Shown: positions 3,744 to 54,394 of the stretch, in pieces
Position numbering within the stretch: position 1 is the stretch's first letter
How the letters are laid out: each line of letters starts with the position of its first letter
Origin: Planctomycetota bacterium
GTDB taxonomy: Bacteria > Planctomycetota > Brocadiia > SM23-32 > JAKLEA01
Length of the DNA: 64,000 nt
Assembly (NCBI GenBank): GCA_022711755.1
Contig: JAKLEA010000001.1
Location: forward strand, 336,743-400,742
Direction of reading: 5' to 3'
Program-made: the position numbers and the translations under genes
The notes under the pieces: model-generated
Told to the model about the DNA's origin: nothing
Database searches by the model: none
What the model saw: only the letters and a program-made list of their open reading frames with translations

Positions 3744-5495
3744 TTATTCCTGATCCATTGCGCCCGCGATGCTGATCACTTCATCAATCGTGGTGACGCC
3801 TTGCAGCGCTTTGCGAACCCCGTCTTCTGTCAGCGTAAGCATGCCATGTGCGCGTGCGCGCGCGCGAAGCTCATGCGTCGGAGCTTTCTTGAAGGCAAGC
3901 TCGCGCAGTTCGGGGTTCATTTCCAGCATTTCTGAAATGGCGCAACGTCCTCTGTATCCCGTATCGTGACAGTAAGAACAACCTGTTCCTTTGAAGAGGG
4001 TTATGTCTCGCAGGTCATCCGGCCGAAGTCCCACAGCCATCAGCATTTTTGCGGGATATTCGTAAGGCTGCTTGCAGTTATCGCAAATCTTACGTACCAG
4101 GCGCTGCGCCATGATGGCCTGAATCGCGCTGGCCACAAGGAAAGGTTTCACGCCTATGTCTATCAGGCGTGCAATTGCGCTCGGAGCGTCATTCGTGTGC
4201 AGCGTGCTGAAAACAAGGTGTCCTGTAAGCGCCGCTGTTATTGCGATTTCCGCTGTTTCCTGGTCACGGATTTCTCCCACCAGGATGATGTTGGGGGCCT
4301 GGCGCAGCATGGCGCGCAGGATGGCGCCGAAAGTCCTTTGAATGTCTTCGCGAACCTCGCACTGGTTGATTCCGCTCAGGTTATACTCAACCGGGTCTTC
4401 GGCGGTGATGATCTTGCGGTCGGGACGGTTAAGTTCATTCAAGGCGGCATACAACGTGGTCGTCTTACCGGAACCGGTAGGCCCCGTCACAAGGAAAATT
4501 CCGTTGGGACGACGGATTATGCTCTGAAACCTTTGATAATCCGTTTCGTGGAATCCGAGGTCGGACAGATTCAAAAGAATGGACTCCTTCAACAGCAGGC
4601 GCATGACGACCGTTTCACCGTTGGTGGCAGGCATCACGCTGACGCGAAGGTCCAATGCCTTGCCGCCGGCTTTGATAGCGATACGTCCGTCCTGGCACTT
4701 GCGTTTTTCGGCTATATCCATCTTCGACATCAGTTTCACGCGAGCCAGCACGGCATTCTGCAATCTTTTCGGCGGGCTTTCGATCTCCTGGCACTCGCCG
4801 TCAATTCGGTACCTGATTCTGACGCGGTTGGCCATTGGTTCGATGTGGATATCGCTCGCCCTGTTGCGAACCGCCTCGCCGATTAACATCGTCACCAGGC
4901 GGATGATCGGCGCCGAATCGGCTTCGTCACCGGCGCCCGGAGCGCCGACGGTCTTCTTGGATTCTTCGTCCATGCCCTCGGAGACCGTCCCCTCATCAAG
5001 GTTAGAAAATGTTGCTTCGCTGCTGGTGAACTCCTGGAGCATGTTGTCAACCGTTGATTCTTCGCCGCCGTAATATTGTTCGATTGCCTCCTCGATCTGT
5101 TCCGGCGGGGCCAGAACCGGTTGCACGTCCGATTCAAGGATGAAGCGAAGACTGTCAACAGCAAAGAGGTCGAGGTCCGGCATGGCAACGCGTATGACGC
5201 CGTTTTCCTTGCTGATCGGCATGATGCGGTGATTCAGGGCTGTCTGCTTGGGCACGGAGTCAATGGCTTCTACGCTGATTTCAACTTCGCCAAGGTCAAC
5301 GACAGGGATATCGAACTGTTCTCCCACGCACTGGAGGACATCCATCTCCCTCGCAAAGCCTAGTTTTACAAGAGCTTCACCCAGTTTGATCTTTTCGGCA
5401 GACTTCTGCTGGAATTCCAGGCCTCTCTTGAGCTGATCCTTGGTTATTGTGCCGCGATCCACCAACATCTGCCCTATCAACTTCCGTTTTGACAT
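3744..5495 (-). CDS. Type II/IV secretion ATPase, GspE/PilB family (tandem paralogue)
   Basis: It has the Walker A motif VTGPTGSGKTTT and a Cys4 motif (CDNC...CSYC). The ORF extends to 5516; the likely start is MSKRKLIG, which has GGGAG upstream. Confidence 0.85.
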   Translation of the reverse strand: MSKRKLIGQMLVDRGTITKDQLKRGLEFQQKSAEKIKLGEALVKLGFAREMDVLQCVGEQFDIPVVDLGEVEISVEAIDSVPKQTALNHRIMPISKENGVIRVAMPDLDLFAVDSLRFILESDVQPVLAPPEQIEEAIEQYYGGEESTVDNMLQEFTSSEATFSNLDEGTVSEGMDEESKKTVGAPGAGDEADSAPIIRLVTMLIGEAVRNRASDIHIEPMANRVRIRYRIDGECQEIESPPKRLQNAVLARVKLMSKMDIAEKRKCQDGRIAIKAGGKALDLRVSVMPATNGETVVMRLLLKESILLNLSDLGFHETDYQRFQSIIRRPNGIFLVTGPTGSGKTTTLYAALNELNRPDRKIITAEDPVEYNLSGINQCEVREDIQRTFGAILRAMLRQAPNIILVGEIRDQETAEIAITAALTGHLVFSTLHTNDAPSAIARLIDIGVKPFLVASAIQAIMAQRLVRKICDNCKQPYEYPAKMLMAVGLRPDDLRDITLFKGTGCSYCHDTGYRGRCAISEMLEMNPELRELAFKKAPTHELRARARAHGMLTLTEDGVRKALQGVTTIDEVISIAGAMDQE

Positions 5496-5553: not shown

Positions 5554-8121
5554 TTATGGCTTACGTGGTTCCTTGCCGGCGTCCTTTGCGCAACGGAAAC
5601 CGGTGCTTTTCTCCACCTGGTGAATGCTGGCTGTGCGCCGCGTAGTAGTCGCAATTCCCTTGATCGGTCCTCCACGCAGCATGGCCGTTGTTGATGAGGA
5701 GGAATACCGTCCTGAGCACCATTCCCAGACATTACCCAGCATATCCATTGCGCCAACTGGGCTTACACCTTGAAGGTATTTGTTGACCGGGGTCGTATGT
5801 CCGGCAATCAAGTTACATTTCTTGATGTCGAAGTCCTCGCCCCAGGGAAATTTTCGTCCGTCCGTTCCGCGGGATGCCCGCTCCCACTCCGCCTCGGAAG
5901 GCAGTCTTTTGCCCATCCATTCGGCATAAGCCTGGGCATCGGTGTAACTGACGTTTGTAACCGGATGCCGCTCCATGTCGGCGGGGAATTGTCCGTTTTG
6001 CCAGTGCGGCGGGGGGCGATGCCCGGTTGAGATTACGAAAGCGGCATAATCTCCATTCGTCACGGGGTATTTATCAATGAAGAAAGCCGGGAGATTGATT
6101 TTCTCTCCCCTGCGAAGTAACCCGCGTTTCTCGTCACCATATATGAACTCACCTTCGGGCACAAGTATCATGCTTTTGATGCCATGCTTGATGCGCACAA
6201 CCCTAAGCAGCTCCTCAACCTGCGGTTCCTGTCCAAACTTCTGCTTAAGCTCATCAAGTTCCAGCGATGCCGCCGTCAAGTCCCCAATTTTAAGAAGATT
6301 AGCGACTTCGGCCAGTCTGGCCTTCAAATGGCCCGCCCTGGTGACGTCGGCTTTCTTTGATGCTGCTTCAGCTATTTGTTTCAATTCGTCGTTATGTCGG
6401 TCAAGGTCAAGACCTTCCTTTGCGAGTTGCAAAGCCTCATCGTAATGGCCTTTTCCCAGAGCCATTTTCGCGGCCATCAGTTTTGCCGCCGCATCGTCTT
6501 TATTCATACTCTTGACGCGCGCGGTGGCATAAGTAAAAGCCTTGCGCATCTCCTCATTCTGAGGATCAAGTTCAACTGCCTTTTTTGCCGCCGCTGCCAC
6601 AGAACGGTAGTCCTGCTCCGCCCACGCTGCCCTGGCGTCACGGATTGCGAAAGCCAGGTCTCTTTCGCGGATTTTGCCCGGCAGAATCTCAAGAACCTTA
6701 ACAAGATTCACATCGGACGGACGCAGTTCCAGCGCTCTTTTTATGAATACTTCCGCTTCCTCATAATTGTATTCATCAAGGCATTTCTGCGCCTTTGAGC
6801 GGAATTCTTCAAACCACTGGGCAATTTCCTGCGCTTGATTGAGAAGTTTTTTTGCGTCGGCATTATCGGGAACCAGTTCCAATGCGCCCTCAAACTCGCT
6901 GACTGCCGCAGAATAATTATGCTTCTCCATTGCTTCCTTGCCCGCGTTCAACTTTGCAAGCATCTTGATATATGAACGAAGGTCTAAACCGCATCCGCCG
7001 CAGAATTTTGATCGTATATGATTTTCAACGGAGCACTTGGGACATTCTTCAACCAGCCTTGTGCCACAAGACTCGCAATACTTCGCCTCCGGCGGATTGC
7101 GGAAATTACATTTGAGACAGGCCACAGGTCCGGCGCTGTCGGTCTGCTTGTCGCCTAGAAGACCATCAATTGCCTCGATGACTTCCCGCGCATTCTGGTA
7201 GCGGTCATCCGGGCTTAATTCCGTCGCTTTGCCAATGATGTTGCGTACATCATCAGGAACTTTATTGAGGTCCTTGCGGATCGGCGGACTGCCGACAACC
7301 AGTTCATAGAACGTGTTGCCAAGCGCATATATATCCGCCCTGTGGTCAATATTCACGGCGTCAAACTTCTGTTCCGGAGCCATGTAAGCCATTGTGCCGA
7401 CCGTGTACCCGCTCTCCGTAACTTCTTCTTTTGCGCCGACTTGCGCAAAGCCGAAATCAACAATCTTCGGCGTGTCGTCGTCTGTCAGCAGGACATTGGC
7501 CGGTTTCAGATCCCGGTGAATTACACCCTTTTCATGGGCATGAGCGAGTCCTTCGCATACTGCGCGGATAATTTTCACGGAACGCATCAGGGGCATCGCT
7601 CCTTCGCGCTTTACAAGGCTGTGCATATCCTCCCCGTCAACGTACTCCATCGAAATGAAGTAACCGGCATCATCGTGATCCACGTTATAAACGCGTATGA
7701 TATTAGGGTGATTCAGCTTTACTATTGCCCTTGCTTCCACGAGAAAACGCTGAAGACTTTTCTCATCCTTGATCACTCGCTTATGCAGGCGTTTTAATGC
7801 GACCGTGGTGTCGAGAATCTTGTCATAAGCCCTGTAGACATTTGCCATTCCGCCACGGCCAAGCTTGTCAAGGACCGTATAGCGGCCCCCAGCGTCATTG
7901 CTTTTGAACTGATCTGTCCTCACCTCAACCGTTGACGCAGCGCCCTGACTGTCCGTGGTGGAACTTCGCCGTGAATCCTGTTGCTCCAATTTCGTGCCGC
8001 AGTGCGGGCAAAACTGCCCTTGGATATCAAGCGTAGCCGAACAGTTCGGACAAACAAGTTTCGCACCCGAATCGCCGGAGCGAAGCTTCTGATTCTGCGC
8101 TTTTGGTTCGGCTCCACTCAC
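5554..8121 (-). CDS. Ser/Thr protein kinase with an N-terminal zinc ribbon, a second zinc ribbon, TPR repeats and a C-terminal FGE-sulfatase (formylglycine-generating-enzyme-like) domain
   Basis: The kinase catalytic loop HRDLKPANVLL and DFG are present. The zinc ribbons are CPNC...CPHC and CLKC...CESC...CPKC...CGGC. TPR-like helical repeats follow. The C-terminus carries FGE-domain hallmarks (YPVTNGDYAAF, GNVWEWC). The start codon is GTG. Confidence 0.8.
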   Translation of the reverse strand: MSGAEPKAQNQKLRSGDSGAKLVCPNCSATLDIQGQFCPHCGTKLEQQDSRRSSTTDSQGAASTVEVRTDQFKSNDAGGRYTVLDKLGRGGMANVYRAYDKILDTTVALKRLHKRVIKDEKSLQRFLVEARAIVKLNHPNIIRVYNVDHDDAGYFISMEYVDGEDMHSLVKREGAMPLMRSVKIIRAVCEGLAHAHEKGVIHRDLKPANVLLTDDDTPKIVDFGFAQVGAKEEVTESGYTVGTMAYMAPEQKFDAVNIDHRADIYALGNTFYELVVGSPPIRKDLNKVPDDVRNIIGKATELSPDDRYQNAREVIEAIDGLLGDKQTDSAGPVACLKCNFRNPPEAKYCESCGTRLVEECPKCSVENHIRSKFCGGCGLDLRSYIKMLAKLNAGKEAMEKHNYSAAVSEFEGALELVPDNADAKKLLNQAQEIAQWFEEFRSKAQKCLDEYNYEEAEVFIKRALELRPSDVNLVKVLEILPGKIRERDLAFAIRDARAAWAEQDYRSVAAAAKKAVELDPQNEEMRKAFTYATARVKSMNKDDAAAKLMAAKMALGKGHYDEALQLAKEGLDLDRHNDELKQIAEAASKKADVTRAGHLKARLAEVANLLKIGDLTAASLELDELKQKFGQEPQVEELLRVVRIKHGIKSMILVPEGEFIYGDEKRGLLRRGEKINLPAFFIDKYPVTNGDYAAFVISTGHRPPPHWQNGQFPADMERHPVTNVSYTDAQAYAEWMGKRLPSEAEWERASRGTDGRKFPWGEDFDIKKCNLIAGHTTPVNKYLQGVSPVGAMDMLGNVWEWCSGRYSSSSTTAMLRGGPIKGIATTTRRTASIHQVEKSTGFRCAKDAGKEPRKP

Positions 8122-15598: not shown

Positions 15599-18500
15599 TT
15601 ATTTTACTCCGGAATCGCTCACCCAGGACTTTGAGCTTGTCAGCCTCATTTTGAAGTTCTGAGCCGCGTTGGCGACGCCCTTGTCATCGTTTGCCGCAAG
15701 CAGGATAAACTCAACCGGACGTCCCGTCTTCCCGAACCGTTCCGCCAATGGTCCGGATATTCCATCCCATGAAACCCGACGCACGACGTAACGTTCTCTG
15801 CCGGGGAAAGATTCCGAAAAGGCCGGTCCTTCCGACATGCCCAGCAGCATATCCAGCAGACTGTCACGCGCGCGGTTTCCTATTACAATGACAGTCTGCG
15901 CCGAGGCGGAAGGAGCATATAGCGTTTCATCAATAATTATTCCGGCAAGATCGGACGTTCCTTCAGAAAGAGACGATATGTAGCTCTTTATGCTCTGGGC
16001 CTGCGCCCAGTCAGTTTTTACGTTGTTGCGTGCCACTATCTGAGCCACAAGGTTTCCGTTGTCCACTATCGGAAGATCCTGCCATCGGATGACAGGTTTC
16101 ATGTCGCGGGCGCGTTTCTGGAATTCTGAGAGAGCGTTCAGCAACTTTTCGCGCGCGTTGCAAAGCCTCAGTTGAAGCGGCTCCGTCTTCGGATCATCCG
16201 ATAGCGCAAGAACTTCCGCCAGAACCTCCTGCGCTGTTTCTTCGGGATTTCTGCTCCCGGCGTCACGCAGATCAGGACTTAGATTTTGCAGAAGATTCAG
16301 GTAGCGCGCGTCATTAATGCCGTCCCTGACTGCGTCCCATGCGGGCGAACAAATCAGGATATTGCCTGTCACAGAAGTCTCTGCGGGAGACGCTCCGGAT
16401 GCGCCGCCTGCTGACGCGGCGGAATCAGTCGGCGCGTATTCTCTGACCTTTATGGGCGTCCAGAGTTTTCTGAATTCCTTGCGCCCGGCCAGCGCAAGCC
16501 AGCAATCCCGTCTGGCATCCCATGGAGATGAAACGCCATAATTGTGCCACAGGCCGATGGAATCGCCCGATGCGGGGGCAAGGAGACCTTGCTGAAGCGC
16601 CGTAGAAGGGATCGTTCTCGCATTGAACTCCCATTGCCACACGCTTTGCCTGGCCGACCTGAGCAAGGTGATTCCCGAAGGGTCAGGGACCTTTTCCGTG
16701 AAAGTTGCGAAAGGTTTCCACCCCAGAGCGGAAAGCTCCTTGAGCGCCGGGATATAGGCATTCAGGAAATTGTCCGTGGTCAACTGGCCAGTCAGCCAGA
16801 GCGAAGTTTCCCGGTAACCTTTATCGCGAAGGTATTGCCGCAATTCGCCCCAATACCATCTCATGATGCGGGCAGGATCGTTCATCACTGCCGGAGAAGG
16901 CCCGGCGGCGGAAGCAAATTTGTCATATGGGGCCTCAACGCAGACTTCAAGAAGGCCGGCATAAATTGCGAAATCGGTATAAACGTCAAGCTTGGAGAAA
17001 TCCAGCGGGGGAAGCTGAGGCTTGGTTAAGAAGTCCGGTGTGGCTGCAATAACTTCATCAAGCGTGCGATTTGTGCCGCGAATCATGACAATCTTGTTGC
17101 CGAACAAATCAAATGGAAGGACAATGCCGCCACAACCATGTTGTGCCGCAGTTGTGAAATATCGTTTCAAGCGGACGGGATCCCAGGAAGGCATTTCGCC
17201 ATTGGCCGGCATGCCGAGAACCACCGCGCCGCCCACCGCGCGAACAGAATGAACCCTAATCCTGATCGGTATCTGAGCGAGCACTTCATCCGATGAGACA
17301 ATAGTCAACGCGCTTGTGTATTCGCCCGGCGGCAGGCCTGAACTGTCAAAGGTTAATGCCGCAATCCGATTCTCGCCAGGATTCAAATTGAAGGATTTTC
17401 GCTCAATCAGTATCGGATAAGGTTCCGACGACGCGTTTTGCGATTCGATGTTCTCGACAATTCTGGCTTTTATGGCGTCCACAGCAGGCAAGGAGGCCAA
17501 TGACGGCTTTTCACCAGGATTGTCGCTTGCAGTCTTCAAATCAGAGACAGTCATTCGGATATTCGTTCTCAGCCTGCCGGAGCGGAGAGCAAACCAGAAT
17601 GCGTAATACTCCGCCATGCCGAGGTCCGCGTCAATTTTCACGCAGGGCATTATGGTTTCTCCGCCCGGCGGAATAAATACAGTCAAAGCGCCGTCAGTGG
17701 CAACGGGCGCAACTTTGTCAACAACGGGTTCCGGTTTCCACTCCGGGATGGCGCTGGCGATGAAACCCTTCGGATTCTCACGTTGCGGCCCTGAGGCCAT
17801 GGCTCCATCTTCAGTGATTCGCATGTCAAAGGCAGAGAGCCTGTCACTCTCCGTCCCTGCGCGAAATGCGATTTCATAACTCCCCTTCGGCGGAACCGGC
17901 CAATACCAGACGGTTTGAATGGTGGCTGCCGGATCCCATCCCGCTGGGATTATAAAATCATGCTTTCCAATCGTCTTTTCCCCCGCTCGCGCAATAACTG
18001 AGACGGGAAATTCAGCTCGCGGCTTGAAATTCAACAATCCTGTCCAGGATATCCTGACGGCGTTCTTTCCCTGGAGCAGACGCGCCGAAGCGACCATGTC
18101 CTTCCCCGCAAAGGAAACCGAATCCATGCCACGCAACGGGATTATCCATATTGTTGTTGTTCCAGACTTGCCTGCCGGCAAGCCCGCAGAACGCAATTCA
18201 AGCATCGGAGACTGCCCGGGGGAGGCTCTGCGAAGAACAAATGATTGCAGAGTGTCATAATCCGTCACGAGCGCGCAGCCCGCGCCATCTGTGCCAAGCC
18301 ATGCGGCCCAGCCGGCAAGCGGCGAATCATTGATCGTATCGGTCTGCAGGTCCTTGACGTTGGCAGCCGTAACGCCTGAAGTGGTGGGCCAAAGCACGCG
18401 AAGCTCAGGATCGGCAAGCGGGTATTCCATCTGAATAGCCGGACGCAGTTCAGTGGGCGTTGTGTTGCGCACTGTTATTTCACAACCCAACGCCGCGCAT

Positions 18501-18973
18501 CCTTCCCTGAGAAAATATCGCTTTACTGTGCGCCCGGGATTGGGAGCTTCCTCCTCCAAAGCGACGCTCGCTTCCGGCGGAGTTCTGGAGATATGTCCGA
18601 CCTTGTACCTTCTTCCAGGCTCATCCAATTCCGTATGCCAGCCGCGGGAACCACTCGCCGTCTGAACAAGTTCCCTATGGCTCAGGCGGTCAACAATGGA
18701 TACTATTGACCCTGAGCGGGTCGGAGATATAGCCACCGAGATATAATCATTTGCAAGGATATAAGACTTCGAGGTTCCATCTTCTTGTTCAAGGCATATC
18801 AATTCAGCGCGCGCGGGGGCCGGCAATATGAGCGGCATCAAGAGAATGGCGGCAATCGCCGGGAAACACAGGCGAGATGGTGGCTCTGAACCTTCTGAAG
18901 TGTTTATAAATTGAATCCTATCGCTCATGTCCGCTTCCAGAAGCGAAGAGACTGTGCGACCGCCAAAATTCAA
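15599..18973 (-). CDS. Large secreted hypothetical protein (1124 aa)
   Basis: It is a long ORF with a signal-peptide-like N-terminus. No family was recognised. It is the last gene of the ispG-dxr-rseP-lipoprotein string. Confidence 0.5.
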   Translation of the reverse strand: MNFGGRTVSSLLEADMSDRIQFINTSEGSEPPSRLCFPAIAAILLMPLILPAPARAELICLEQEDGTSKSYILANDYISVAISPTRSGSIVSIVDRLSHRELVQTASGSRGWHTELDEPGRRYKVGHISRTPPEASVALEEEAPNPGRTVKRYFLREGCAALGCEITVRNTTPTELRPAIQMEYPLADPELRVLWPTTSGVTAANVKDLQTDTINDSPLAGWAAWLGTDGAGCALVTDYDTLQSFVLRRASPGQSPMLELRSAGLPAGKSGTTTIWIIPLRGMDSVSFAGKDMVASARLLQGKNAVRISWTGLLNFKPRAEFPVSVIARAGEKTIGKHDFIIPAGWDPAATIQTVWYWPVPPKGSYEIAFRAGTESDRLSAFDMRITEDGAMASGPQRENPKGFIASAIPEWKPEPVVDKVAPVATDGALTVFIPPGGETIMPCVKIDADLGMAEYYAFWFALRSGRLRTNIRMTVSDLKTASDNPGEKPSLASLPAVDAIKARIVENIESQNASSEPYPILIERKSFNLNPGENRIAALTFDSSGLPPGEYTSALTIVSSDEVLAQIPIRIRVHSVRAVGGAVVLGMPANGEMPSWDPVRLKRYFTTAAQHGCGGIVLPFDLFGNKIVMIRGTNRTLDEVIAATPDFLTKPQLPPLDFSKLDVYTDFAIYAGLLEVCVEAPYDKFASAAGPSPAVMNDPARIMRWYWGELRQYLRDKGYRETSLWLTGQLTTDNFLNAYIPALKELSALGWKPFATFTEKVPDPSGITLLRSARQSVWQWEFNARTIPSTALQQGLLAPASGDSIGLWHNYGVSSPWDARRDCWLALAGRKEFRKLWTPIKVREYAPTDSAASAGGASGASPAETSVTGNILICSPAWDAVRDGINDARYLNLLQNLSPDLRDAGSRNPEETAQEVLAEVLALSDDPKTEPLQLRLCNAREKLLNALSEFQKRARDMKPVIRWQDLPIVDNGNLVAQIVARNNVKTDWAQAQSIKSYISSLSEGTSDLAGIIIDETLYAPSASAQTVIVIGNRARDSLLDMLLGMSEGPAFSESFPGRERYVVRRVSWDGISGPLAERFGKTGRPVEFILLAANDDKGVANAAQNFKMRLTSSKSWVSDSGVK

Positions 18974-39429: not shown

Positions 39430-41850
39430 TTATGGAAACCATAGAACCAACTCTCCCCAACGGGAAGGCTGAACTCGGGCTTTCACCGAGCGCGTTGCGG
39501 CATCGTACCACCAGATACCATTCGCGTCGCCATCCGGCGGAGCGTCCGTTCGCATCAATTCGGCGCCGTCGAAGAGAATCATGCGCGGTTCAGAACCGTA
39601 GACGACGAATCCGGAGACGTCTTCAGGCGCATCGGAAAGACGGATTCGCCACGAGTCGGCGCCGGTGATTGAAGTGACCTCGAATGCGCGATCCCGACTC
39701 ATGTTAAATTTGCGATGGTTCCCTTTGCCATTGGCGGATGCGGCTATACAGAGTCGTTTTCCCTTTGACATTGATGCACCCCATTCCATAGTTGCGCTTT
39801 CCAGTTCGGCCAGCAGAATGCCGCTCTCGCGGATGAGAATCGGCTCGCTGCCAAGGGGCGTCGGGCGTTCGATTCTATCTCCGCCTGGAAGCTTTTCCCC
39901 GGTTCTAAGGTCCGTCCATATTCCCTTGCCGGGAAGATAGACTCGCGACGTCGCCATGTCATGCGAAACCGGCGCAAACCACAGGTCCGGTCCGAAGCAG
40001 TAGCCATCCTCAACGTCCCTGCATTTCTCGTCTTCGGGGAATTCCAGATACGGAATCCGCATGATGGGAACGCCGGTCTTGTGCGCCTCGATTGCAAGCG
40101 ACCAGGTCGTCGGCAGCAGATTCATTCGGAGCCAAGCGTAATATTTGTATATCTCGACCGCGCGGTTGCCGAAGCGCCACGGCTCGCGCGGAGAGCATCC
40201 GTGCGAACGCATGATCGGGCTGAAAGCGGCGAAGGCCACCCACCGGAGATACACCGGTTCTGTGAGCGGTTGCAGCGGACGCGCCAACAGGCCGCCGATG
40301 TCGCTGCCCCAGAAGGGGAAACCGCTGGCGGAGAAAGTCAGGCCGCCGCGAATCACGGACTGAAGCCCGTCGAACGCCTCCGGATGATCCCCCGCGAAGA
40401 AACAGACGAATTGCTGACACCCCGGCCCCGCTGAACGGGCGAAGAGGAAGAAATCGTCTCCCCGCGCCTCGCGGAATACATCACTGAATGTTTTATGGTA
40501 AAGGTAATGGAAGCGATTGTGCATCCGCCGTCCCGTTTCGCCGTTGTGGTAAAGCGCGTCAACCGCCGAGTCGTCGCCATCGTCAACCATCGCGCCGGCA
40601 AGCCCGTTCTGAAGCCTCTCACGCCATTCCAGCCGAACGTAGTTGATCGTGTCCGGATGCGTGAAGTCGAAATACGGCTCTCCTTGCAAGAACAGCGTCT
40701 GTGGCACGGCAAAGAGCGATCCGTCCCGCATGTGAAGCAGAACGCGTTCGTAGTCTTTCCTCTCCCCGCCGCCTGCCGCTTTGATCGCCCCGGTGTCGGG
40801 ATTCGGACCGTACCAGCAGAGGGGCTTCACCCCCGCCGCGGATATGGCCTTCAGGAGTTCCATGTTCTTGAATACCGCCGCGCAGGAGAAAATCGCGCTG
40901 TGCGGGATGTCCAGTTCCCGGAAGCGAGCGATGACGCGCAGCATCTCGCTCTTGATGTCGCTCTTGATCTCTCCCTTGCTGATCCAGCGTCCCGCCTCCC
41001 CGCCCATCCACGGCTCGAAGGCCCATCTGGGCGGAAGCAGCGGCTTGCCTGTAATGTCGCTCAGGAATCGAAGCGAATCCTTGGGATTGGTGTGCGTGAG
41101 AAAATAGAGATCGAGGACCGGACCGTCGGCGATGATGGAAACGCAATCCTTCGTTGTTCTCGCCATGTCGCAATCCATGCGATATGACGAGTCCCAGAAG
41201 AAGGCGAAGCGCGAGGAGCTAAGGAAGAATGGCGAATTCTTGTATGCAGTGTCGCGTGTTCCAACGAAACTGCCGAGTCCGGCGTCGGTTCCCCAGAGTT
41301 TCACCATCCGCCCGCGCTGATTCACGGCGTCGAAACGCTCGCCAAATCCGTAATATGCCTCGCCCGCGCGGGATGGGAACTCGACGCGCCAGCCTTCTGG
41401 TTTTCCATTGTCACCGCCGGATACATCACAAGCGATTGACATGTTTTCCAGAATGACGCTCCCGGCGCTCCCAATCAGGTCAAATCTGATGCCATTCTCA
41501 GGGTGCTTCTTCACGATCCTGATAGCAGCGGCAGAACCGTCAGCGATGCTGGGGCGGATTTCGATTTGTCCGCTTTTCTCGCTCACAGCGGATGTAACGC
41601 GCGGTCCGGCGTTCCCGTCGAAATCCCCGACAACCTCGCCACGGATTCTGGCCACGTTTGCCGACGGGAAAGAAATCCAGAGGTCAATCTCATGCCCCCC
41701 TTCAGCATTGCAACGCAGCTTGACCTCTCTGAACACGGTAATTGATATCTCTGCTCGTTCCAGAATTGCCCACTTGCGGTCTCGTTTGGGAGCTTCATCC
41801 GCATTACACAGGAAAGGAAACAGTAGGCAGATAGCCGTCGCGCGAAACAT
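39430..41850 (-). CDS. Glycoside hydrolase family 31 (alpha-glucosidase/alpha-xylosidase-like), secreted
   Basis: The GH31-like catalytic region is present (GAMVDDGDD, FFAGDHPEAFDGL, GFPFWGSDIGG). The ORF track start is a TTG at 41913. The likely start is MFRATAICLLFPFLCNA, a signal peptide. Confidence 0.75.
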   Translation of the reverse strand: MFRATAICLLFPFLCNADEAPKRDRKWAILERAEISITVFREVKLRCNAEGGHEIDLWISFPSANVARIRGEVVGDFDGNAGPRVTSAVSEKSGQIEIRPSIADGSAAAIRIVKKHPENGIRFDLIGSAGSVILENMSIACDVSGGDNGKPEGWRVEFPSRAGEAYYGFGERFDAVNQRGRMVKLWGTDAGLGSFVGTRDTAYKNSPFFLSSSRFAFFWDSSYRMDCDMARTTKDCVSIIADGPVLDLYFLTHTNPKDSLRFLSDITGKPLLPPRWAFEPWMGGEAGRWISKGEIKSDIKSEMLRVIARFRELDIPHSAIFSCAAVFKNMELLKAISAAGVKPLCWYGPNPDTGAIKAAGGGERKDYERVLLHMRDGSLFAVPQTLFLQGEPYFDFTHPDTINYVRLEWRERLQNGLAGAMVDDGDDSAVDALYHNGETGRRMHNRFHYLYHKTFSDVFREARGDDFFLFARSAGPGCQQFVCFFAGDHPEAFDGLQSVIRGGLTFSASGFPFWGSDIGGLLARPLQPLTEPVYLRWVAFAAFSPIMRSHGCSPREPWRFGNRAVEIYKYYAWLRMNLLPTTWSLAIEAHKTGVPIMRIPYLEFPEDEKCRDVEDGYCFGPDLWFAPVSHDMATSRVYLPGKGIWTDLRTGEKLPGGDRIERPTPLGSEPILIRESGILLAELESATMEWGASMSKGKRLCIAASANGKGNHRKFNMSRDRAFEVTSITGADSWRIRLSDAPEDVSGFVVYGSEPRMILFDGAELMRTDAPPDGDANGIWWYDAATRSVKARVQPSRWGELVLWFP

Positions 41851-42136
41851 GTTCAATCTTGAGTCCACATCGCAATCTCCATTGGGGAATGGCCAACCAA
41901 TAGCTAATGGCAATTCGAAAAGCCAAAGTTTGTAACCATCACACCGCCAACCATTCCCAAAGATAAGGATAACGTCATCTGATTTTCATTGCCATTCTGC
42001 TCAAGGCCGCGCCTGGTTATACGAAATGCTTTTGCGCGGGGACGGAAAGTCTGTAAGCGAAATGTGATGATGGGAGACAGCGTCTTGAAGTCTGGAGCGT
42101 TGTCTGTTATTATTACGCAAGCATTGAATTCCGCTG

Positions 42137-42214
42137 CCGGGGCGTAGCTCAGTTTGGCTAGAGCGCTTGGTTTGGGACCAAGAGGTCGCTGGTTCAAATC
42201 CAGTCGCCCCGACC
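42137..42214 (+). tRNA. tRNA-Pro (anticodon TGG)
   Basis: I folded the cloverleaf by hand. It has a 7-bp acceptor stem CGGGGCG/CGCCCCG, an anticodon loop TTTGGGA with G37, the T-loop TTCAAAT and an encoded CCA. Confidence 0.9.
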
Positions 42215-42437
42215 ATTTCCGCCGGGGGCGAAAATGGTAGAGCAGGAGAAAGGAGAGAGGAGAAAGTAGACCGGAATTGCGGCTTGGGCGTAGGAAGCAC
42301 ACGGGCGACAATCAGCGGACGCGCCCTTTCTCCTGCGGTCTCCTTTCTACTCTCTACTCTCCGCCGTCGTTTCCGTTGTCGTTGACGTTCGCGTACCAGG
42401 AGCGCCGCAATCCGCATCTGGCATGAGTAGATGAAGA

Positions 42438-42806
42438 GTGAGCATGGCCTTCGCATTCGAGAAACTGAACGTCTATCAGAAAGCCGTCACCTTCGCCGAC
42501 AACGTTTGCACGCTGACTCGTGACCTGCCTCGCGGATACTTCTTTCTTGCCGATCAACTGAATCGCGCCGCCCTCTCCATCGCTGCCAACATTGCGGAAG
42601 GCAACGGACGTTTCACGAAAGCCGACCGGAGGAACTTCTTCGGCATTGCCCGTGGCTCGGTCCAGGAATGTGTGCCGCTGCTGGAACTGGCGCGGCGTCG
42701 GGGCTTGATCAGCGAACAAGATCACGGCAGACTGAAGGACGACCTCGAAGAGATAGCCCGCATGCTGTCAGGGCTGATCAACGGGTTGGAGAAGCGGAGA
42801 GAATGA
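42438..42806 (+). CDS. Four-helix-bundle protein (23S rRNA intervening-sequence protein / Avd-like family)
   Basis: The family pattern is recognisable (YQKAVTFADNVCTLTRDLPRGYFFLADQLNRAALSIAANIAEGNGRFTKADRRNFFGIARGSVQE). Confidence 0.75.
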   Translation: MSMAFAFEKLNVYQKAVTFADNVCTLTRDLPRGYFFLADQLNRAALSIAANIAEGNGRFTKADRRNFFGIARGSVQECVPLLELARRRGLISEQDHGRLKDDLEEIARMLSGLINGLEKRRE

Positions 42807-42855
42807 GCGGTGTCGGGTTCCTACGCTACTGTAGAGAAGGGGAAGAAGAGAATGT

Positions 42856-43209
42856 ATGGTTACCCAGAGGAACGACGGACATCGCAGTAAGGCCGATGAC
42901 GTCTTCGAGAGAGTTCACAACGCGAACGAGGCGCTCTGTGTCGGTGAAGGAGATGTGAGGAACCGCCTTGTCATTGCAGGCGAAATCCTTTCACCGCTGC
43001 GGCCAGAAGACTTCCCGGAGAGTCTACGAGAGGATTTCTGCTGGATCATGCAAGAACTCACTCGATGGCCCGGCCGACACAAACGAGAGGGGCGTATTGA
43101 GGCAACTATGGCACGGATTCGCCGGAAGACTGGAAGAAGAATCGCTGAGCACATCTGGAAGATGTTCGTCGAAATCCCGGGACTACGGGGAAGGCCAATG
43201 TACTACTGA
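42856..43209 (+). CDS. Hypothetical protein (117 aa)
   Basis: The call rests on the ORF alone. It lies inside the tRNA-linked islet. Confidence 0.35.
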   Translation: MVTQRNDGHRSKADDVFERVHNANEALCVGEGDVRNRLVIAGEILSPLRPEDFPESLREDFCWIMQELTRWPGRHKREGRIEATMARIRRKTGRRIAEHIWKMFVEIPGLRGRPMYY

Positions 43210-43258
43210 AAGGGCTTCCCTGAGCGGGCCCGTTGCAGCCAGGATGAAACGCAGGCAT

Positions 43259-43288
43259 GGTTCAAACGAGCGCCAGTCGCCCCGACCA
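43259..43288 (+). repeat. Degenerate direct repeat of the tRNA-Pro 3' end (T-arm plus acceptor). Putative attR-like boundary.
   Basis: GGTTCAAA-cgagcgc-CAGTCGCCCCGACCA aligns with the tRNA 3' end GGTTCAAA-tc-CAGTCGCCCCGACCA. Confidence 0.6.
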
Positions 43289-43439
43289 GTTCATGATAAT
43301 AAAGATCACTGCCCGCCGCAGACGGGAGAAGTTCAAATTTCAGCCGCCTCATGCGGACTGTTTGTACTTGCTCTGAGACGCGAGTAAGACGCGAAAAAAG
43401 GGAATAGGCAAACCAGGGTTTTCGCGCAACTTGCAACAT

Positions 43440-43874
43440 CTACAATCTCGGCTTCAACTGCATGATCCCCGTATCCGTGTTCTTAACCCGCTGTAGCGGG
43501 CAGCCGCGCAGCTTGTGGACCACGATCTCGGTCAGATAAAGCGTCCGGCATCCCGCGTGCATGTGGCCCGCGTATGTCTTCTCCCCGATACCCATCACGC
43601 AATGCAGGTGCGGCTCGTAATCGGCTATGATCCCCTGAAGGGCGGCCACTTCGATAGGGCCTTCAAGCTCATACATCTCGTTTTCCGCCGGATACCCCGT
43701 CGTCGTGATGTAGTGCATCGCCGCCCTGTCAACCGTCGCCACGCAACTGACTATCACGCCGGTCTGGATGTCCAGCTTGCGGGCGAGCTTGCGGATGGAC
43801 TCAATAATGTCATCCCCCTGATCAAGCCTTATGGCAATGATGTCCTCAATCTGTATGCCTGTGAAGTATTCCAT
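43440..43874 (-). CDS. PPC/DUF296 domain protein
   Basis: The 144-aa sequence fits the DUF296 pattern (IIAIRLDQGDDIIESI...HLHCVMG). Confidence 0.6.
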   Translation of the reverse strand: MEYFTGIQIEDIIAIRLDQGDDIIESIRKLARKLDIQTGVIVSCVATVDRAAMHYITTTGYPAENEMYELEGPIEVAALQGIIADYEPHLHCVMGIGEKTYAGHMHAGCRTLYLTEIVVHKLRGCPLQRVKNTDTGIMQLKPRL

Positions 43875-51803: not shown

Positions 51804-53510
51804 TTATTGCCGGACTTTATCGGAAGGTTCCGGCCCAAGCTCAAGCCTGTATTCGCGTATTTCAAACAATCGGAAATCCCGGACCTCCCCCGTCGGAACC
51901 AGGTGCGACCTTCCCATGCTGGTAATGCCCGGCGGCGCGGCCTTGTTGATGAGGATGTATGCCCTGTCCGGAAACTGCATGCCCGGTTTCCAGACCTGCG
52001 CGGCGGGATTGAGAAACCTGATCAGGTGCGGGAGGCCGCCGGTCCAGTTCGCCGCGACAATTGCAGATGCCATGTCGTGATCGGCTGCAACCTGTTCGAT
52101 CAGCGGCGGATAGGAAAAGTCGGCGAGAAGGATCGGGTTTGAAGCCGCGCGTTGACCGAGATACTCCGCCATCTGGAGCTTGTTGGCGTATGAAGGCCCC
52201 GTCGGGCCTGCCGCCCCGCCCAGCCGATTCACAAGCCGGATGTATTCCGAAGACATCATGACTCCCCCACCCGCCAGAATCGCAGTAATAAATAATGCAG
52301 GCCACCGTGCGGCAGGCATTCCTTTTGCCTTTATGCCATCAGTAATACTCTTGAGCGCCATTCCGACGGTGATAAAAATCGCCGGCATGCCGACAAAGAA
52401 ATAGCATCGCTGCAAGGGTTCAGAATAGAACATCAGCGGAGGCGCTAGAAGGAAGACCAGCAGGATTATCTCCGCCGAGTTCCCTGCGGCGCTCAAACTC
52501 TCATGCCCTCCCCCCTGCGCCGGAGCGTGCTCAGGCTCTTCATTGCTGCTGGGCGCTATAGTGCGCAGTTTGGAGATTAACATAATCGTCCCGATAATGA
52601 GTAGCGATCCTCCAAGAACACCCGCCAGTTTAGGAAGCGCCAGGAATTCTTCAGATAGCTCGCTAGTCGTCGGTCCCAGATAGTATTCCGGAATCCCGGC
52701 CATGCCGAGAATCTCGAGCATGAACCGGAAACCTCTGAAAGTCGGCTCTCTCGCCGTCTTGCCACCGACCACGCCGAAGAATTTGGCCACGTCCTCGAAA
52801 CCGGACCCGGACTCGAAAATGATGAACGGCAACGCCGTCAGAAAACATGCCCCCGCTGCGCAGAGCCACCACTTAAGCGGTATTCTGCGCCGCATCAGCA
52901 GCCACATGACAGGCACGGCGGCGCAGAGCGGAACGCCGGAATAATGGACCTGCGCCGTGACGCACAGAACAGTCAGAGCCAGCGCCCAGGTCCATGCCCG
53001 GGGCTTCTCCATGAAAAGCAGGCAGCAGTAAAGGCTCAGCGTCGCAAAGAAACACATCAGATCGGGCGCCCAGAGCTTGCGCGTTTCCAGAACCGCCCAG
53101 GCGTTCGTCGCCATCAGCAATGCCGGAATAATCGCCCACCCGCGCCCGATAATTCTGTGCGCAGCCATTCCGCAAAGCATGACCGCGAGAACCCCGCTCG
53201 CGGCGCTCACGCCGGCCAGCGTAAGCGGACTGTCGCCGAAAATCAGGCCCGGAATCAGCGCGTAATAGAACCACGGCGGAAACATCATGCTTTTGCTGTC
53301 CGGGCTGGAACGATGCCCGCAGAGAGGGATATTCCCTTCCAGCACGCCCAGAAGCGCCTCGTGATGATCGGCCTGGTCCCCCCGAAACTCCATGACCTCC
53401 AGACTGTAGAACCGGAGGCTGGCGGCTGTATACAAAACCAACACCGGCAGGACTAGACGCGTCAAACTACTCCAGTCCTTTTCAATGCTTGTCGTCATGC
53501 CGGTCCTCAT
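51804..53510 (-). CDS. Polytopic membrane glycosyltransferase-like protein (ArnT/PMT, GT39/GT83-like)
   Basis: It is a protein of about 12 TM helices with an N-terminal loop (YSLEVMEFRGDQADHHEAL). The family assignment is tentative. Confidence 0.5.
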   Translation of the reverse strand: MRTGMTTSIEKDWSSLTRLVLPVLVLYTAASLRFYSLEVMEFRGDQADHHEALLGVLEGNIPLCGHRSSPDSKSMMFPPWFYYALIPGLIFGDSPLTLAGVSAASGVLAVMLCGMAAHRIIGRGWAIIPALLMATNAWAVLETRKLWAPDLMCFFATLSLYCCLLFMEKPRAWTWALALTVLCVTAQVHYSGVPLCAAVPVMWLLMRRRIPLKWWLCAAGACFLTALPFIIFESGSGFEDVAKFFGVVGGKTAREPTFRGFRFMLEILGMAGIPEYYLGPTTSELSEEFLALPKLAGVLGGSLLIIGTIMLISKLRTIAPSSNEEPEHAPAQGGGHESLSAAGNSAEIILLVFLLAPPLMFYSEPLQRCYFFVGMPAIFITVGMALKSITDGIKAKGMPAARWPALFITAILAGGGVMMSSEYIRLVNRLGGAAGPTGPSYANKLQMAEYLGQRAASNPILLADFSYPPLIEQVAADHDMASAIVAANWTGGLPHLIRFLNPAAQVWKPGMQFPDRAYILINKAAPPGITSMGRSHLVPTGEVRDFRLFEIREYRLELGPEPSDKVRQ

Positions 53511-54394
53511 CCGCGCGGGTGGAATCGTTTATGAACGCTCTTCAACTGGTCCTTCGAGACGTGCGTGTAGATTTCCGTTGTTGAGATATTAACGTGTCCG
53601 AGCAAAATCTGCACTGTTCTCAGATCCGCCCCCCCTTCAAGCAGGTGTGTGGCAAAGCTATGGCGCAAAGCATGAGGGTAGACATTTGCCCTGATTCCAG
53701 CCTTACGCGCATAACGCTTCACCAGCGACCAGAGCGCCGTTCGCGTCAGACGCTTTCCGCGTATGCTCAGAAAAAGCGCGGTCTCCTCCGCAGCCCCCTT
53801 CCATGCTGGGCGCGCATCCCCAAGATAATGGCGCAGATGATCCCGCGCCAGATCGTTGAGCGGCACAATCCTTTCCTTCATCCGCTTTCCGTAGCATCGC
53901 GCATAACCCACGTCAAGGTCAACGCTGGAGACGTCAAGTCCGGTCACCTCGCTCACCCGCGCCCCCGTGGCGTAGAAAACCTCCAGTATCGCGCGATCTC
54001 GTATTCCAACAGGCTCTGAAACGTCCGGGGCATTCAGCAGATTCTCGACGTCCCTCACAGTTAGAACCTCAGGAAGCCTTTTCCAGAGTCTCGGTGACTC
54101 AACCAGCGAGGTCGGGTCGTTCGGAATGATCCCCTCGGCCGTCAGGAAGCGAAAAAACATCCGGATGGCGACAACCGCGCGCCAGACCGAGTTGACCGCA
54201 AGGCCGCGCTCCTTCTCCGCAACCATGAAGTCAACAAGATGCCCCGCCCGCGCGTCGCCCGGCGCGGCAACGCCCTGCGCCGTGAGAAACTCCGTGAACC
54301 GCGTCAGATCCCGCCCGTAGGCGTCAATGGTATTCGGCGACGCCCCGCATTCGGCGGAAAGGTATTCGAGGAAGGATTTTATGTGCTCCCGCAA
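53507..54394 (-). CDS. Tyrosine site-specific recombinase, XerC/XerD family
   Basis: The R...HxxR...Y catalytic set is present (ALRHSFATHLL...LGHVNISTTEIYTHV). The N-terminal core-binding domain is EYLSAECGASPNTIDAYGRDL. Confidence 0.8.
   Translation of the reverse strand: MREHIKSFLEYLSAECGASPNTIDAYGRDLTRFTEFLTAQGVAAPGDARAGHLVDFMVAEKERGLAVNSVWRAVVAIRMFFRFLTAEGIIPNDPTSLVESPRLWKRLPEVLTVRDVENLLNAPDVSEPVGIRDRAILEVFYATGARVSEVTGLDVSSVDLDVGYARCYGKRMKERIVPLNDLARDHLRHYLGDARPAWKGAAEETALFLSIRGKRLTRTALWSLVKRYARKAGIRANVYPHALRHSFATHLLEGGADLRTVQILLGHVNISTTEIYTHVSKDQLKSVHKRFHPRG

Follow-up and report, generated by a model that had tools for sequence, protein, structure and literature searches.

Integron cassette arrays include clusters of attC sites lacking an integrase (CALINs), where attC sites are imperfect palindromes with RYYYAAC and GTTRRRY cores. 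Integrative mobile elements exploiting Xer recombination (IMEX) use the host XerCD proteins in place of their own integrase. Proteins of the PF05635 family, called intervening sequence (IVS) proteins, have for decades been known as passengers of 23S rRNA, and are relatives of Avd from diversity-generating retroelements (DGRs). To our knowledge, they have no established function. In Coxiella, Leptospira, and other bacteria, intervening sequences of 23S rRNA carry an open reading frame (ORF) of this family, S23p/PF05635 (PMC4990558). Such sequences are regarded as selfish passengers, encoding a protein without known function, and in Coxiella the ORF is reportedly decaying (PMC4990558). A cis-mobilisable element (CIME) is a decayed integrative element that keeps attL and attR, its integration and transfer genes having been lost (PMC5704250). 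Here, we analyse a stretch of 64,000 nucleotides from a Planctomycetota bacterium (assembly GCA_022711755.1, contig JAKLEA010000001.1, positions 336,743 to 400,742), referred to throughout as the window. The window contains a tRNA-Pro gene followed, 1.07 kb downstream, by a partial copy of the tRNA 3' end. The segment between encodes a PF05635 protein (fhb, for four-helix bundle) and a second small protein (p117). We present evidence that this may be a very small CIME-like unit, and that related arrangements recur across Planctomycetota.

The 3' end of tRNA-Pro is repeated downstream of its gene

The only tRNA gene detected in the window by ARAGORN is tRNA-Pro(TGG). This occupies positions 42138-42215 of the forward strand, with an encoded CCA, and matches Rfam model RF00005 with 68.8 bits. 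In a repeat search, the tRNA 3' end CCAGTCGCCCCGACCATTTC (42200-42219) was found again as CCAGTCGCCCCGACCAGTTC (43273-43292). The two copies are in direct orientation, are identical at 19 of 20 positions, and are spaced by 1073 nt. Hence, the direct repeat reported in a preliminary description of this DNA is real, and has the length and position of an att duplication. Both copies contain a core, CCAGTCGCCCCGACCA, and, upstream of it, the 9-mer TGGTTCAAA (42190-42198 and 43258-43266). Between 9-mer and core, tRNA-Pro has 1 nt (T) and the downstream copy has 6 nt (CGAGCG). Note that the replacement of TC by 7 nt, as previously described, is the same change. The 'T loop' of the downstream copy is 12 nt long, compared with 7 nt in tRNA-Pro. 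We refer to the stretch comprising TGGTTCAAA, T, the core, and TTTC (42190-42219) as the attL-like copy. The attR-like copy, on the same strand, is a partial tRNA-Pro 3' end comprising TGGTTCAAA, CGAGCG, the core, and GTTC (43258-43292).

The downstream copy could, in principle, be a chance match or belong to a second, decayed tRNA gene. Nothing favours either explanation except the sequence similarity itself. An exact 15-mer of the tRNA-Pro tail is present at just these two sites in 64 kb, and 0.15 matches to the tail are expected by chance if up to 2 mismatches are allowed. What we observe is an exact 16-mer and an exact 9-mer in register. ARAGORN calls no tRNA at the downstream copy, the Rfam tRNA model has no match there at E≤5, and no cloverleaf is apparent. 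The copy is not, then, the second tRNA gene or pseudogene that the preliminary description had allowed for. Similarly truncated copies are found at three of the other loci described below (L099, L100, and L106). We consider the probability of either explanation to be close to nil.

Two genes, co-oriented with tRNA-Pro, lie between the repeats. These are fhb (42444-42806), encoding 120 amino acids, and p117 (42856-43209), encoding 117 amino acids. The p117 ORF stops 48 nt ahead of the distal repeat. As previously described, the bounded segment holds just these two small genes; it encodes no recombinase. The sole tyrosine recombinase of the window is XerD, encoded at 53507-54394, 10 kb from the unit. 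This assignment follows from a TIGR02225 score of 354 bits (cutoff 330), compared with 118 bits for the integron-integrase model (cutoff 265).

The tRNA-Pro tail commonly serves as an integration site. Briefly, 63 IMG/VR contigs contain the 16-nt core; 14 of these occurrences are within complete tRNA-Pro genes and around 33 are partial 3' fragments (~47-70 nt), which is the usual form of a phage att site. The 63 contigs share nothing further with the unit described here.

A structured leader and fhb form a conserved module

The fhb protein is a forward strand product matching PF05635 (E=3.9e-31) and TIGR02436 (102 bits). The correct start codon is the ATG at 42444, which matches homologues with the N-terminus MAFAFEKL. 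Homologues number more than 4000 at E≤1e-15. Among the top 120, identity is 76-87% throughout, and all belong to Pirellulales, Phycisphaerae, or Brocadiia; pairwise identity is 75-87% irrespective of class. The closest solved structures, 2gsc and 2rld, are uncharacterised bundles. In the literature, we found no link between 'four helix bundle protein' and Planctomycetes, and mention of PF05635 in the context of DGRs only.

Between tRNA-Pro and fhb is a leader of two parts, which we identified in ten copies. The first is a hairpin, H1 (CCAUUUCCGCC GGG GGCGAAAAUGG; 42213-42237, forward strand). When each copy is folded with RNAfold, a perfect H1 hairpin is obtained in 10 of 10 cases, beginning immediately past the tRNA discriminator base; in the window, it takes in the encoded CCA. 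The H1 stems are unrelated in sequence across the copies and there is, therefore, clear covariation. The second part (42238-42362, forward strand) has the box TAGAGCAGGAG, a purine-rich 5' arm, a variable loop, and a pyrimidine-rich 3' arm, CTCCTGCGGTCTCCTTTCTACTCTCTACTC. Together, according to folding, conservation, and pairing in the ten copies, these make an imperfect hairpin of ~125 nt. The box is near-invariant, the consensus of the 3' arm is CTCCTGCGGTCTCCTTTCTACT, and the long hairpin ends ...CTGCGGTCTCC..., also given as CTGCGGTCTCCTTTCTACT. The leader is detected by nhmmer with E=2e-30 and its conservation far exceeds that of synonymous sites in the adjacent fhb. In the long stem, a few pairs vary on both sides or through G-U pairing. 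Since the stem is mostly invariant in sequence across the ten copies, it says little about structure. The leader matches no Rfam family, and a profile search of the window found no further copy. Neither H1 nor a leader follows the distal repeat.

The purine arm of the leader contains several GGAG or AAGGAG repeats (42244-42270 in the window; the pyrimidine arm is at 42339-42357). We take the pyrimidine arm, CUCCUUUCU, to resemble the anti-Shine-Dalgarno end of 16S rRNA. At most loci, an evident Shine-Dalgarno sequence is missing ahead of fhb itself.

The module recurs behind tRNA ends across Planctomycetota

We compared eight independent fhb loci, selected because they are on long contigs. These were the window and loci L086, L096, L099, L100, L105, L106, and L107. 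At all eight, a conserved leader precedes fhb, a tRNA end precedes the leader, and tRNA and fhb are co-oriented. The leader copies are at 42213-42362 (window), 3902-3995 (L086), 3840-3985 (L096), 4872-4990 (L099), 4842-4985 and 7699-7850 (L100), 4848-4990 (L105), 1773-1925 and 4843-4995 (L106), and 4889-4990 (L107). The tRNA ahead of the leader is an intact tRNA-Pro(TGG) in the window, L086, L107, and, for the first copy, L106. It is an intact tRNA-Pro(CGG) in L105 and an intact tRNA-Ala(GGC) in L096. In L100 (GGTTACTATCAACGCCTGTCGCCCCGA), and ahead of the second L106 copy (GGTTCACTGTCAACTCCTGTCGCCCCGA), there is instead a pseudo tRNA-Pro 3' end with a T loop longer by 5-6 nt. In L099, the leader is preceded by a tRNA-Pro-like remnant (..GCGCCCCG..). 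Since tRNA genes number only some tens in a genome of thousands of genes, coincidence cannot explain an intact tRNA at six loci and a fragment or remnant at two. We therefore define a tRNA-linked leader-fhb module of Planctomycetota; this is a class introduced here, rather than a published family. It consists of H1 past the discriminator, the TAGAGCAGGAG box, the long hairpin, and an fhb at least 75% identical to the subfamily. All are present in the window.

Three loci resemble the window in having tRNA-end copies further downstream. In L100, from the Phycisphaerae metagenome-assembled genome GCA_023150615.1, the order is pseudo-site, H1, leader, fhb, a gene for 185 amino acids, and another pseudo-site, with a spacing of 1174 nt. 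Beyond this unit are two GNAT acetyltransferase genes, each ending in the site GACCGTTTCTATACCAGGCGAGTCGCCCCGA (spacings 829 and 854 nt). Past the third copy of GACCGTTTCTATACCAGGCGAGTCGCCCCGA, a second H1 and leader precede a DUF1697 gene. In L099, leader and fhb are followed by an FRG-domain gene, a pseudo tRNA-Pro 3' end (GTTCACTGACCCTCCGGTCGCACCCGA), H1, and a partial leader. In L106, an intact tRNA-Pro, H1, leader, and the first 58 nt of fhb are separated by a 3-kb insert from a pseudo-site, H1, leader, and complete fhb. The insert carries an ankyrin/aspartyl-protease gene. Consequently, L106 contains a direct repeat of 230 nt with 92% identity (1759-1988 and 4829-5058), which spans the tRNA-Pro tail, H1, the leader, and 58 nt of fhb. 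Distal copies at four independent loci have 5-6 extra bases in the loop, although GGTT(C) and the T-stem/acceptor strand are retained.

Some further features of these loci were noted. The region 5960-7700 of L100 looks like a cassette array, with three copies of GACCGTTTCTATACCAGGCGAGTCGCCCCGA, each after one small gene. Behind each of the first two lies a similar promoter-like stretch (TTTGCGC ... TACAAT). The partial leader of L099, past GTTCACTGACCCTCCGGTCGCACCCGA and H1 (6448-6554), has no gene behind it. In L106, an inverted tRNA-Pro T-arm/acceptor fragment is found at ~5445-5476, some 80-110 nt past the complete fhb. Finally, five independent assemblies of the L086 type (Logan contigs L088 and L091-L094) begin at the same base in the tRNA-Pro T-stem, 125 nt before fhb. 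This is as expected from an assembly-graph branch if the stretch of T-arm, core, and H1 has a second context.

The gene following fhb is variable

The gene after fhb differs at every locus. It encodes p117, an HD-domain protein, an FRG protein, or proteins of unknown type, or is missing. The p117 protein (forward strand) is all-helical and belongs to an unannotated family. An exhaustive search gave 415 clusters at E≤1e-3, mostly of ~110 amino acids, with the shared motifs GxGDVRxRL, FP..L, and TGxKIA. Conversely, p117 has no match in Pfam, NCBIfam, PADLOC, PHROGs, or a sequence search of the PDB. The AlphaFold model has five helices (pLDDT 92.6), and Foldseek comparison of this model with the PDB returned nothing below E=0.4. 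Relatives with 40-54% identity come from unrelated groups, including Prosthecochloris, Methylococcaceae, and Lysobacterales.

We considered whether fhb and p117 are a conserved pair, comparable to a toxin-antitoxin system. In 13 other p117-family loci, no fhb gene was found. Hence, p117 is patchily distributed accessory cargo with no fixed fhb partner. The preliminary description treated both genes as cargo. This holds for p117, which is variable, and not for fhb which, with the leader, is the constant part of the module behind tRNA-Pro ends.

Other p117-family genes have varied neighbours. In L003 (121-3416), the gene overlaps the HigA stop codon by 4 nt, with a HigB fragment upstream; a tyrosine integrase fragment is also upstream, 2 kb away. 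In L005 (555-1799), from Prosthecochloris, it is directly behind an AbiU2-type HEPN gene. As judged by gene context, these two cases hint at a toxin-antitoxin or defence-related role of the family. In L016 (3579-6339), a p117-family gene and a partner encoding 256 amino acids are near tRNA-Arg and tRNA-Val; the gene for a large serine recombinase separates this pair from tRNA-Val. The same pair, in opposite orientation, abuts tRNA-Val in L015 (105-1649), a short contig with no recombinase. The arrangement in L015 and L016 may represent an invertible or differently integrated element. In L007 and L010, p117-family genes are near transposases.

A model for insertion at the tRNA-Pro 3' end

On these grounds, we suggest that the segment from ~42216 to 43272 is a CIME-like unit, placed at the tRNA-Pro(TGG) 3' end by site-specific recombination, with the recombinase acting in trans. 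We put the chance that this is correct at about even. In such a model, the intact tRNA end would be attL-like and the partial T-arm/acceptor/CCA copy (43258-43292) attR-like. Since the unit has no recombinase, it would be either a decayed element or one mobilisable in cis or in trans, as for CIMEs, with the enzyme encoded elsewhere or already lost. The unit would have the order tRNA-Pro core, H1, TAGAGCAGGAG box with long hairpin, fhb, variable gene, and enlarged-loop T-arm plus core. Leader and fhb would be the constant att-proximal part and p117 the exchangeable cargo. Repeated use of one site could then give the tandem arrays of other genomes. Such arrays would read as tRNA 5' part, core, a unit (H1, leader, an optional fhb, cargo, and enlarged-loop T-arm), core, and the next unit. 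The window would contain one instance of this arrangement, ahead of chromosomal sequence without a leader. Excision should produce recognisable junctions. These are predicted to be an attB of tRNA-Pro...GACCA plus GTTCATGATAAT, that is, ...GGTTCAAATCCAGTCGCCCCGACCA joined to GTTCATGATAATAAAG, and an attP of ...CGAGCGCCAGTCGCCCCGACCATTTCCGCC..., that is, ...GGTTCAAACGAGCGCCAGTCGCCCCGACCA joined to TTTCCGCCGGGGGCG.

Before insertion, tRNA-Pro would have faced the terminator of an operon encoding a PCC-domain protein. Directly past the distal repeat, a terminator-like hairpin with a T-run is predicted on the reverse strand (43311-43323). This fits the end of a convergent operon encoding the PCC-domain protein and a 2-hydroxyacid dehydrogenase, so tRNA-Pro facing that operon is the likely ancestral layout. 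After insertion, fhb and p117 would most probably be transcribed by read-through from the tRNA promoter, and the hairpins could act as processing sites in the transcript. A parallel is offered by 23S rRNA intervening sequences, which are excised by RNase III and carry PF05635 ORFs (PMC4990558). The only promoter-like site predicted in 41800-43600 is upstream of tRNA-Pro (42085-42113, forward strand). This resembles a sigma-70 promoter (TTGAAG, 17 nt spacer, TG-TATTAT) by consensus match alone. In the same interval, no forward strand terminator is predicted between tRNA-Pro and fhb. It is thus plausible that this promoter also drives fhb and p117.

Our comparison suggests that the recurrence of leader and fhb behind tRNA-Pro tails defines an undescribed family of integrase-less, tRNA-anchored units in Planctomycetota. 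A bolder proposal is that such units constitute a phylum-wide cassette system at tRNA-Pro, inserted and stacked by a host or distant recombinase. Besides leader, fhb, and a single exchangeable gene, every unit would bring its own recombination site, resembling a tRNA 3' end with an enlarged T loop. The fhb protein, the leader, or both would have a part in the joining reaction or in transcript processing. We think this rather unlikely.

Alternative explanations

Several observations weigh against insertion as a mobile unit. The leader-fhb module of L086, L105, L107, and L096, that is, at three intact tRNA-Pro genes and the tRNA-Ala gene, has no second tRNA-end copy within 5-6 kb. The enlarged T loop of distal copies is not accounted for by simple duplication of an att site. 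There is no integrase within ±10 kb of the unit and no recombinase within ±5 kb of the other fhb loci. GC content is 0.55-0.60 both inside the unit and in its flanks and so gives no compositional anomaly. We saw neither an empty site nor an attP or circular form: all eight metagenome contigs (~0.4 Mb) read for this genome are 100% identical at the locus, and the closest relative, L018, differs in gene order. In IMG/VR, searches with fhb and p117 found nothing and the leader pattern gave just 4 chance matches. Similarly, neither p117 nor the module is in plasmid or phage collections, plasmid matches to fhb being distant cyanobacterial paralogues (<43% identity). Across the eight loci, codon positions 1 and 2 of fhb are 81% and 90% identical, and position 3 is only ~45% identical. 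Hence, synonymous sites are saturated and the module must be old in every lineage, and nothing points to a recent transfer. Judging from these codon positions, fhb is under very strong purifying selection. The eight loci are, in addition, a small sample.

Much of this would be explained if tRNA-Pro, leader, and fhb were a native, ancient, and vertically inherited operon, with just p117 and the pseudo tRNA end being foreign. The fhb gene would then ride on a stable-RNA promoter, as IVS proteins do in 23S rRNA. A mostly deleted element could have left p117 and the scar, or both could have been imported, with a neighbouring fhb, by homology-facilitated recombination. The four repeat-free loci keep this explanation alive. 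Long residence under strong purifying selection agrees with amino acid identities of 75-87% despite saturated synonymous sites, as does conservation of the leader well above the synonymous level. The normal composition and lack of a recombinase are also as expected, and the 230-nt duplication in L106 resembles a Campbell-type homologous insertion into a resident module. However, the tRNA-end copies of the window enclose not only p117 but also leader and fhb. With classical insertion beside a native module, the displaced copy should instead end up ahead of the leader, which is its position in L100 and L106. Furthermore, the module is behind three tRNA species (Pro-TGG, Pro-CGG, and Ala-GGC), the second leader copy of L100 precedes a gene other than fhb, and both L099 and L100 share the window's unit of fhb plus one gene, then site. 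A native operon is, we believe, the main rival explanation, a serious though doubtful possibility. The partial tRNA ends and H1 might, alternatively, be RNA signals for processing or stability, delimiting cistrons in transcripts from tRNA promoters, loosely as tRNAs punctuate mitochondrial transcripts. Such a role would suit H1, which in 10 of 10 copies is perfect and begins at the first base past the discriminator, though the stems are wholly different. Several long-stem pairs are preserved by G-U changes, which are relevant for RNA and not DNA, all parts are co-oriented with the tRNA, and the pseudo-sites of L099, L100, and L106 retain the same T-arm/acceptor parts. Note that RNase P and RNase Z recognise the acceptor/T minihelix. 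The pseudo-sites lack the 5' acceptor strand and so cannot form one. Moreover, the folds of 43210-43300, including the attR-like copy (z=1.1), and of the leader (z=0.4) are no more stable than those of shuffled sequences, and the distal copy in the window is not followed by H1 or leader. Direct repeats of 13-16 nt around variable genes are, by comparison, a standard signature of DNA recombination. We regard punctuation of the RNA as improbable.

It is also necessary to consider known systems involving PF05635, with fhb as an accessory (Avd) protein of a DGR or as part of a relocated 23S-type intervening sequence. The Pfam match, and a weak PHROG match to 'Avd protein of DGR' (E=2.8e-10), are all that point this way. 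The NCBIfam Avd equivalog model, NF033474, scores 21.3 bits on fhb against a cutoff of 80, whereas TIGR02436 scores 102 bits. No reverse transcriptase turned up in the surrounding ±10 kb or in the scan of other large ORFs of the window, and no pair of template and variable repeats in 41900-43500. Hence, the link to Avd and DGRs made in the preliminary description did not survive. Similarly, there is no match to rRNA in 41800-43600, the context of fhb being a tRNA. An IVS-like stem enclosing the fhb ORF can be rejected since both arms of the hairpin are upstream, and pairing of the leader 3' arm with the spacer past fhb is no better than for shuffled sequences (p=0.35). Both possibilities are effectively refuted and we attach very little probability to them. 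We conclude that a miniature element, or cassette mobilised in trans, as the preliminary description proposed, is the best reading of the window. It has analogues in L099, L100, and L106. The four loci with the module and no downstream repeat go part of the way towards an outcome that the preliminary description held would refute it, namely related genomes with both genes at this locus and no repeat. No related genome with exactly that arrangement was found.

Genomic neighbourhood

Upstream of tRNA-Pro is a GH31 hydrolase gene on the reverse strand. The PCC-domain and 2-hydroxyacid dehydrogenase genes are the convergent downstream neighbours. In L018, the homologue of the PCC protein is 75% identical and the gene order is 2-hydroxyacid dehydrogenase, PCC, and Ham1, with no tRNA-Pro there. 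A possible second, more decayed T-arm/acceptor remnant, GTTCAAATTTCAGCCGCC, is found at 43331-43348 of the forward strand (local score 11), 43 nt past the attR-like copy. An equal score is reached by 0.25% of random 85-nt segments of the window (nominal p ~0.0025). This similarity is suggestive only; if it is a real tRNA remnant, there may have been an older insertion at the same tRNA-Pro. Elsewhere in the window, a reverse strand ORF encoding 1124 amino acids (15599-18973) has no Pfam match at E≤1e-3.

Implications and comparison with known systems

Our data provide a second stable-RNA context for the PF05635 family, with a Planctomycetota subfamily located directly behind tRNA-Pro. In these bacteria, fhb often heads units or arrays that are bounded by tRNA tails, carry variable accessory genes, and lack a recombinase. 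If mobile, the units would represent a new kind of gene-capture element, very small and anchored at tRNA genes. If native, they would indicate a conserved link between the PF05635 family and tRNA or rRNA transcription units. In either case, the function of PF05635 proteins becomes experimentally approachable in cultured planctomycetes. Should a phylum-wide cassette system exist, it would be a new gene-capture platform, and would tie the 23S IVS protein family generally to stable-RNA genes. Separately, our work on p117 defines an unannotated family of helical proteins, several members of which are encoded beside mobile-element or toxin-antitoxin genes.

The unit in the window resembles IMEX in having no recombinase of its own and a host XerD encoded on the same stretch of DNA. 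Its target is, however, a tRNA 3' end rather than dif, and no evidence links XerD to the tRNA-Pro site. Like a CALIN, the array in L100 has single small genes, each followed by a site-like repeat, in units of 829-1174 nt with no integrase nearby. In contrast to a CALIN, the L100 repeats resemble tRNA-Pro 3' ends, are not attC-like, as judged by eye alone, and belong to an array anchored at a tRNA gene. Nor is there an IntI protein, XerD being the only integrase-family protein of the window. There is also a likeness to 23S intervening sequences. The fhb protein is of the same family and its ORF is probably in a stable-RNA transcription unit, beside a long hairpin such as RNase III cleaves. The differences are that fhb is downstream of a tRNA, rather than within 23S rRNA, that the hairpin precedes the ORF instead of enclosing it, and that fhb is maintained by strong purifying selection, whereas decay is reported for the Coxiella ORF.

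Compared with CIMEs, the unit in the window is tiny, and no integrase-bearing parent element was found. Its att-proximal part is a phylum-wide structured leader and a conserved fhb, not the remnant of an integrative and conjugative element, an integrative and mobilisable element, or a prophage. In addition, the distal copy at leader-fhb loci has a characteristic enlarged T loop and several loci are without any attR. Of the usual hallmarks of tRNA islets, an integrase of its own and deviant composition are missing, and location at a tRNA 3' end and direct repeats are present. Even so, CIMEs and tRNA islets are what the unit most resembles. It is positioned at the 3' end of a tRNA gene and flanked by direct repeats of 16-20 nt. 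As in a CIME, attL-like and attR-like repeats are kept and genes for integration or transfer are not. Finally, L099, L100, and L106 exhibit tandem accretion at the same site.

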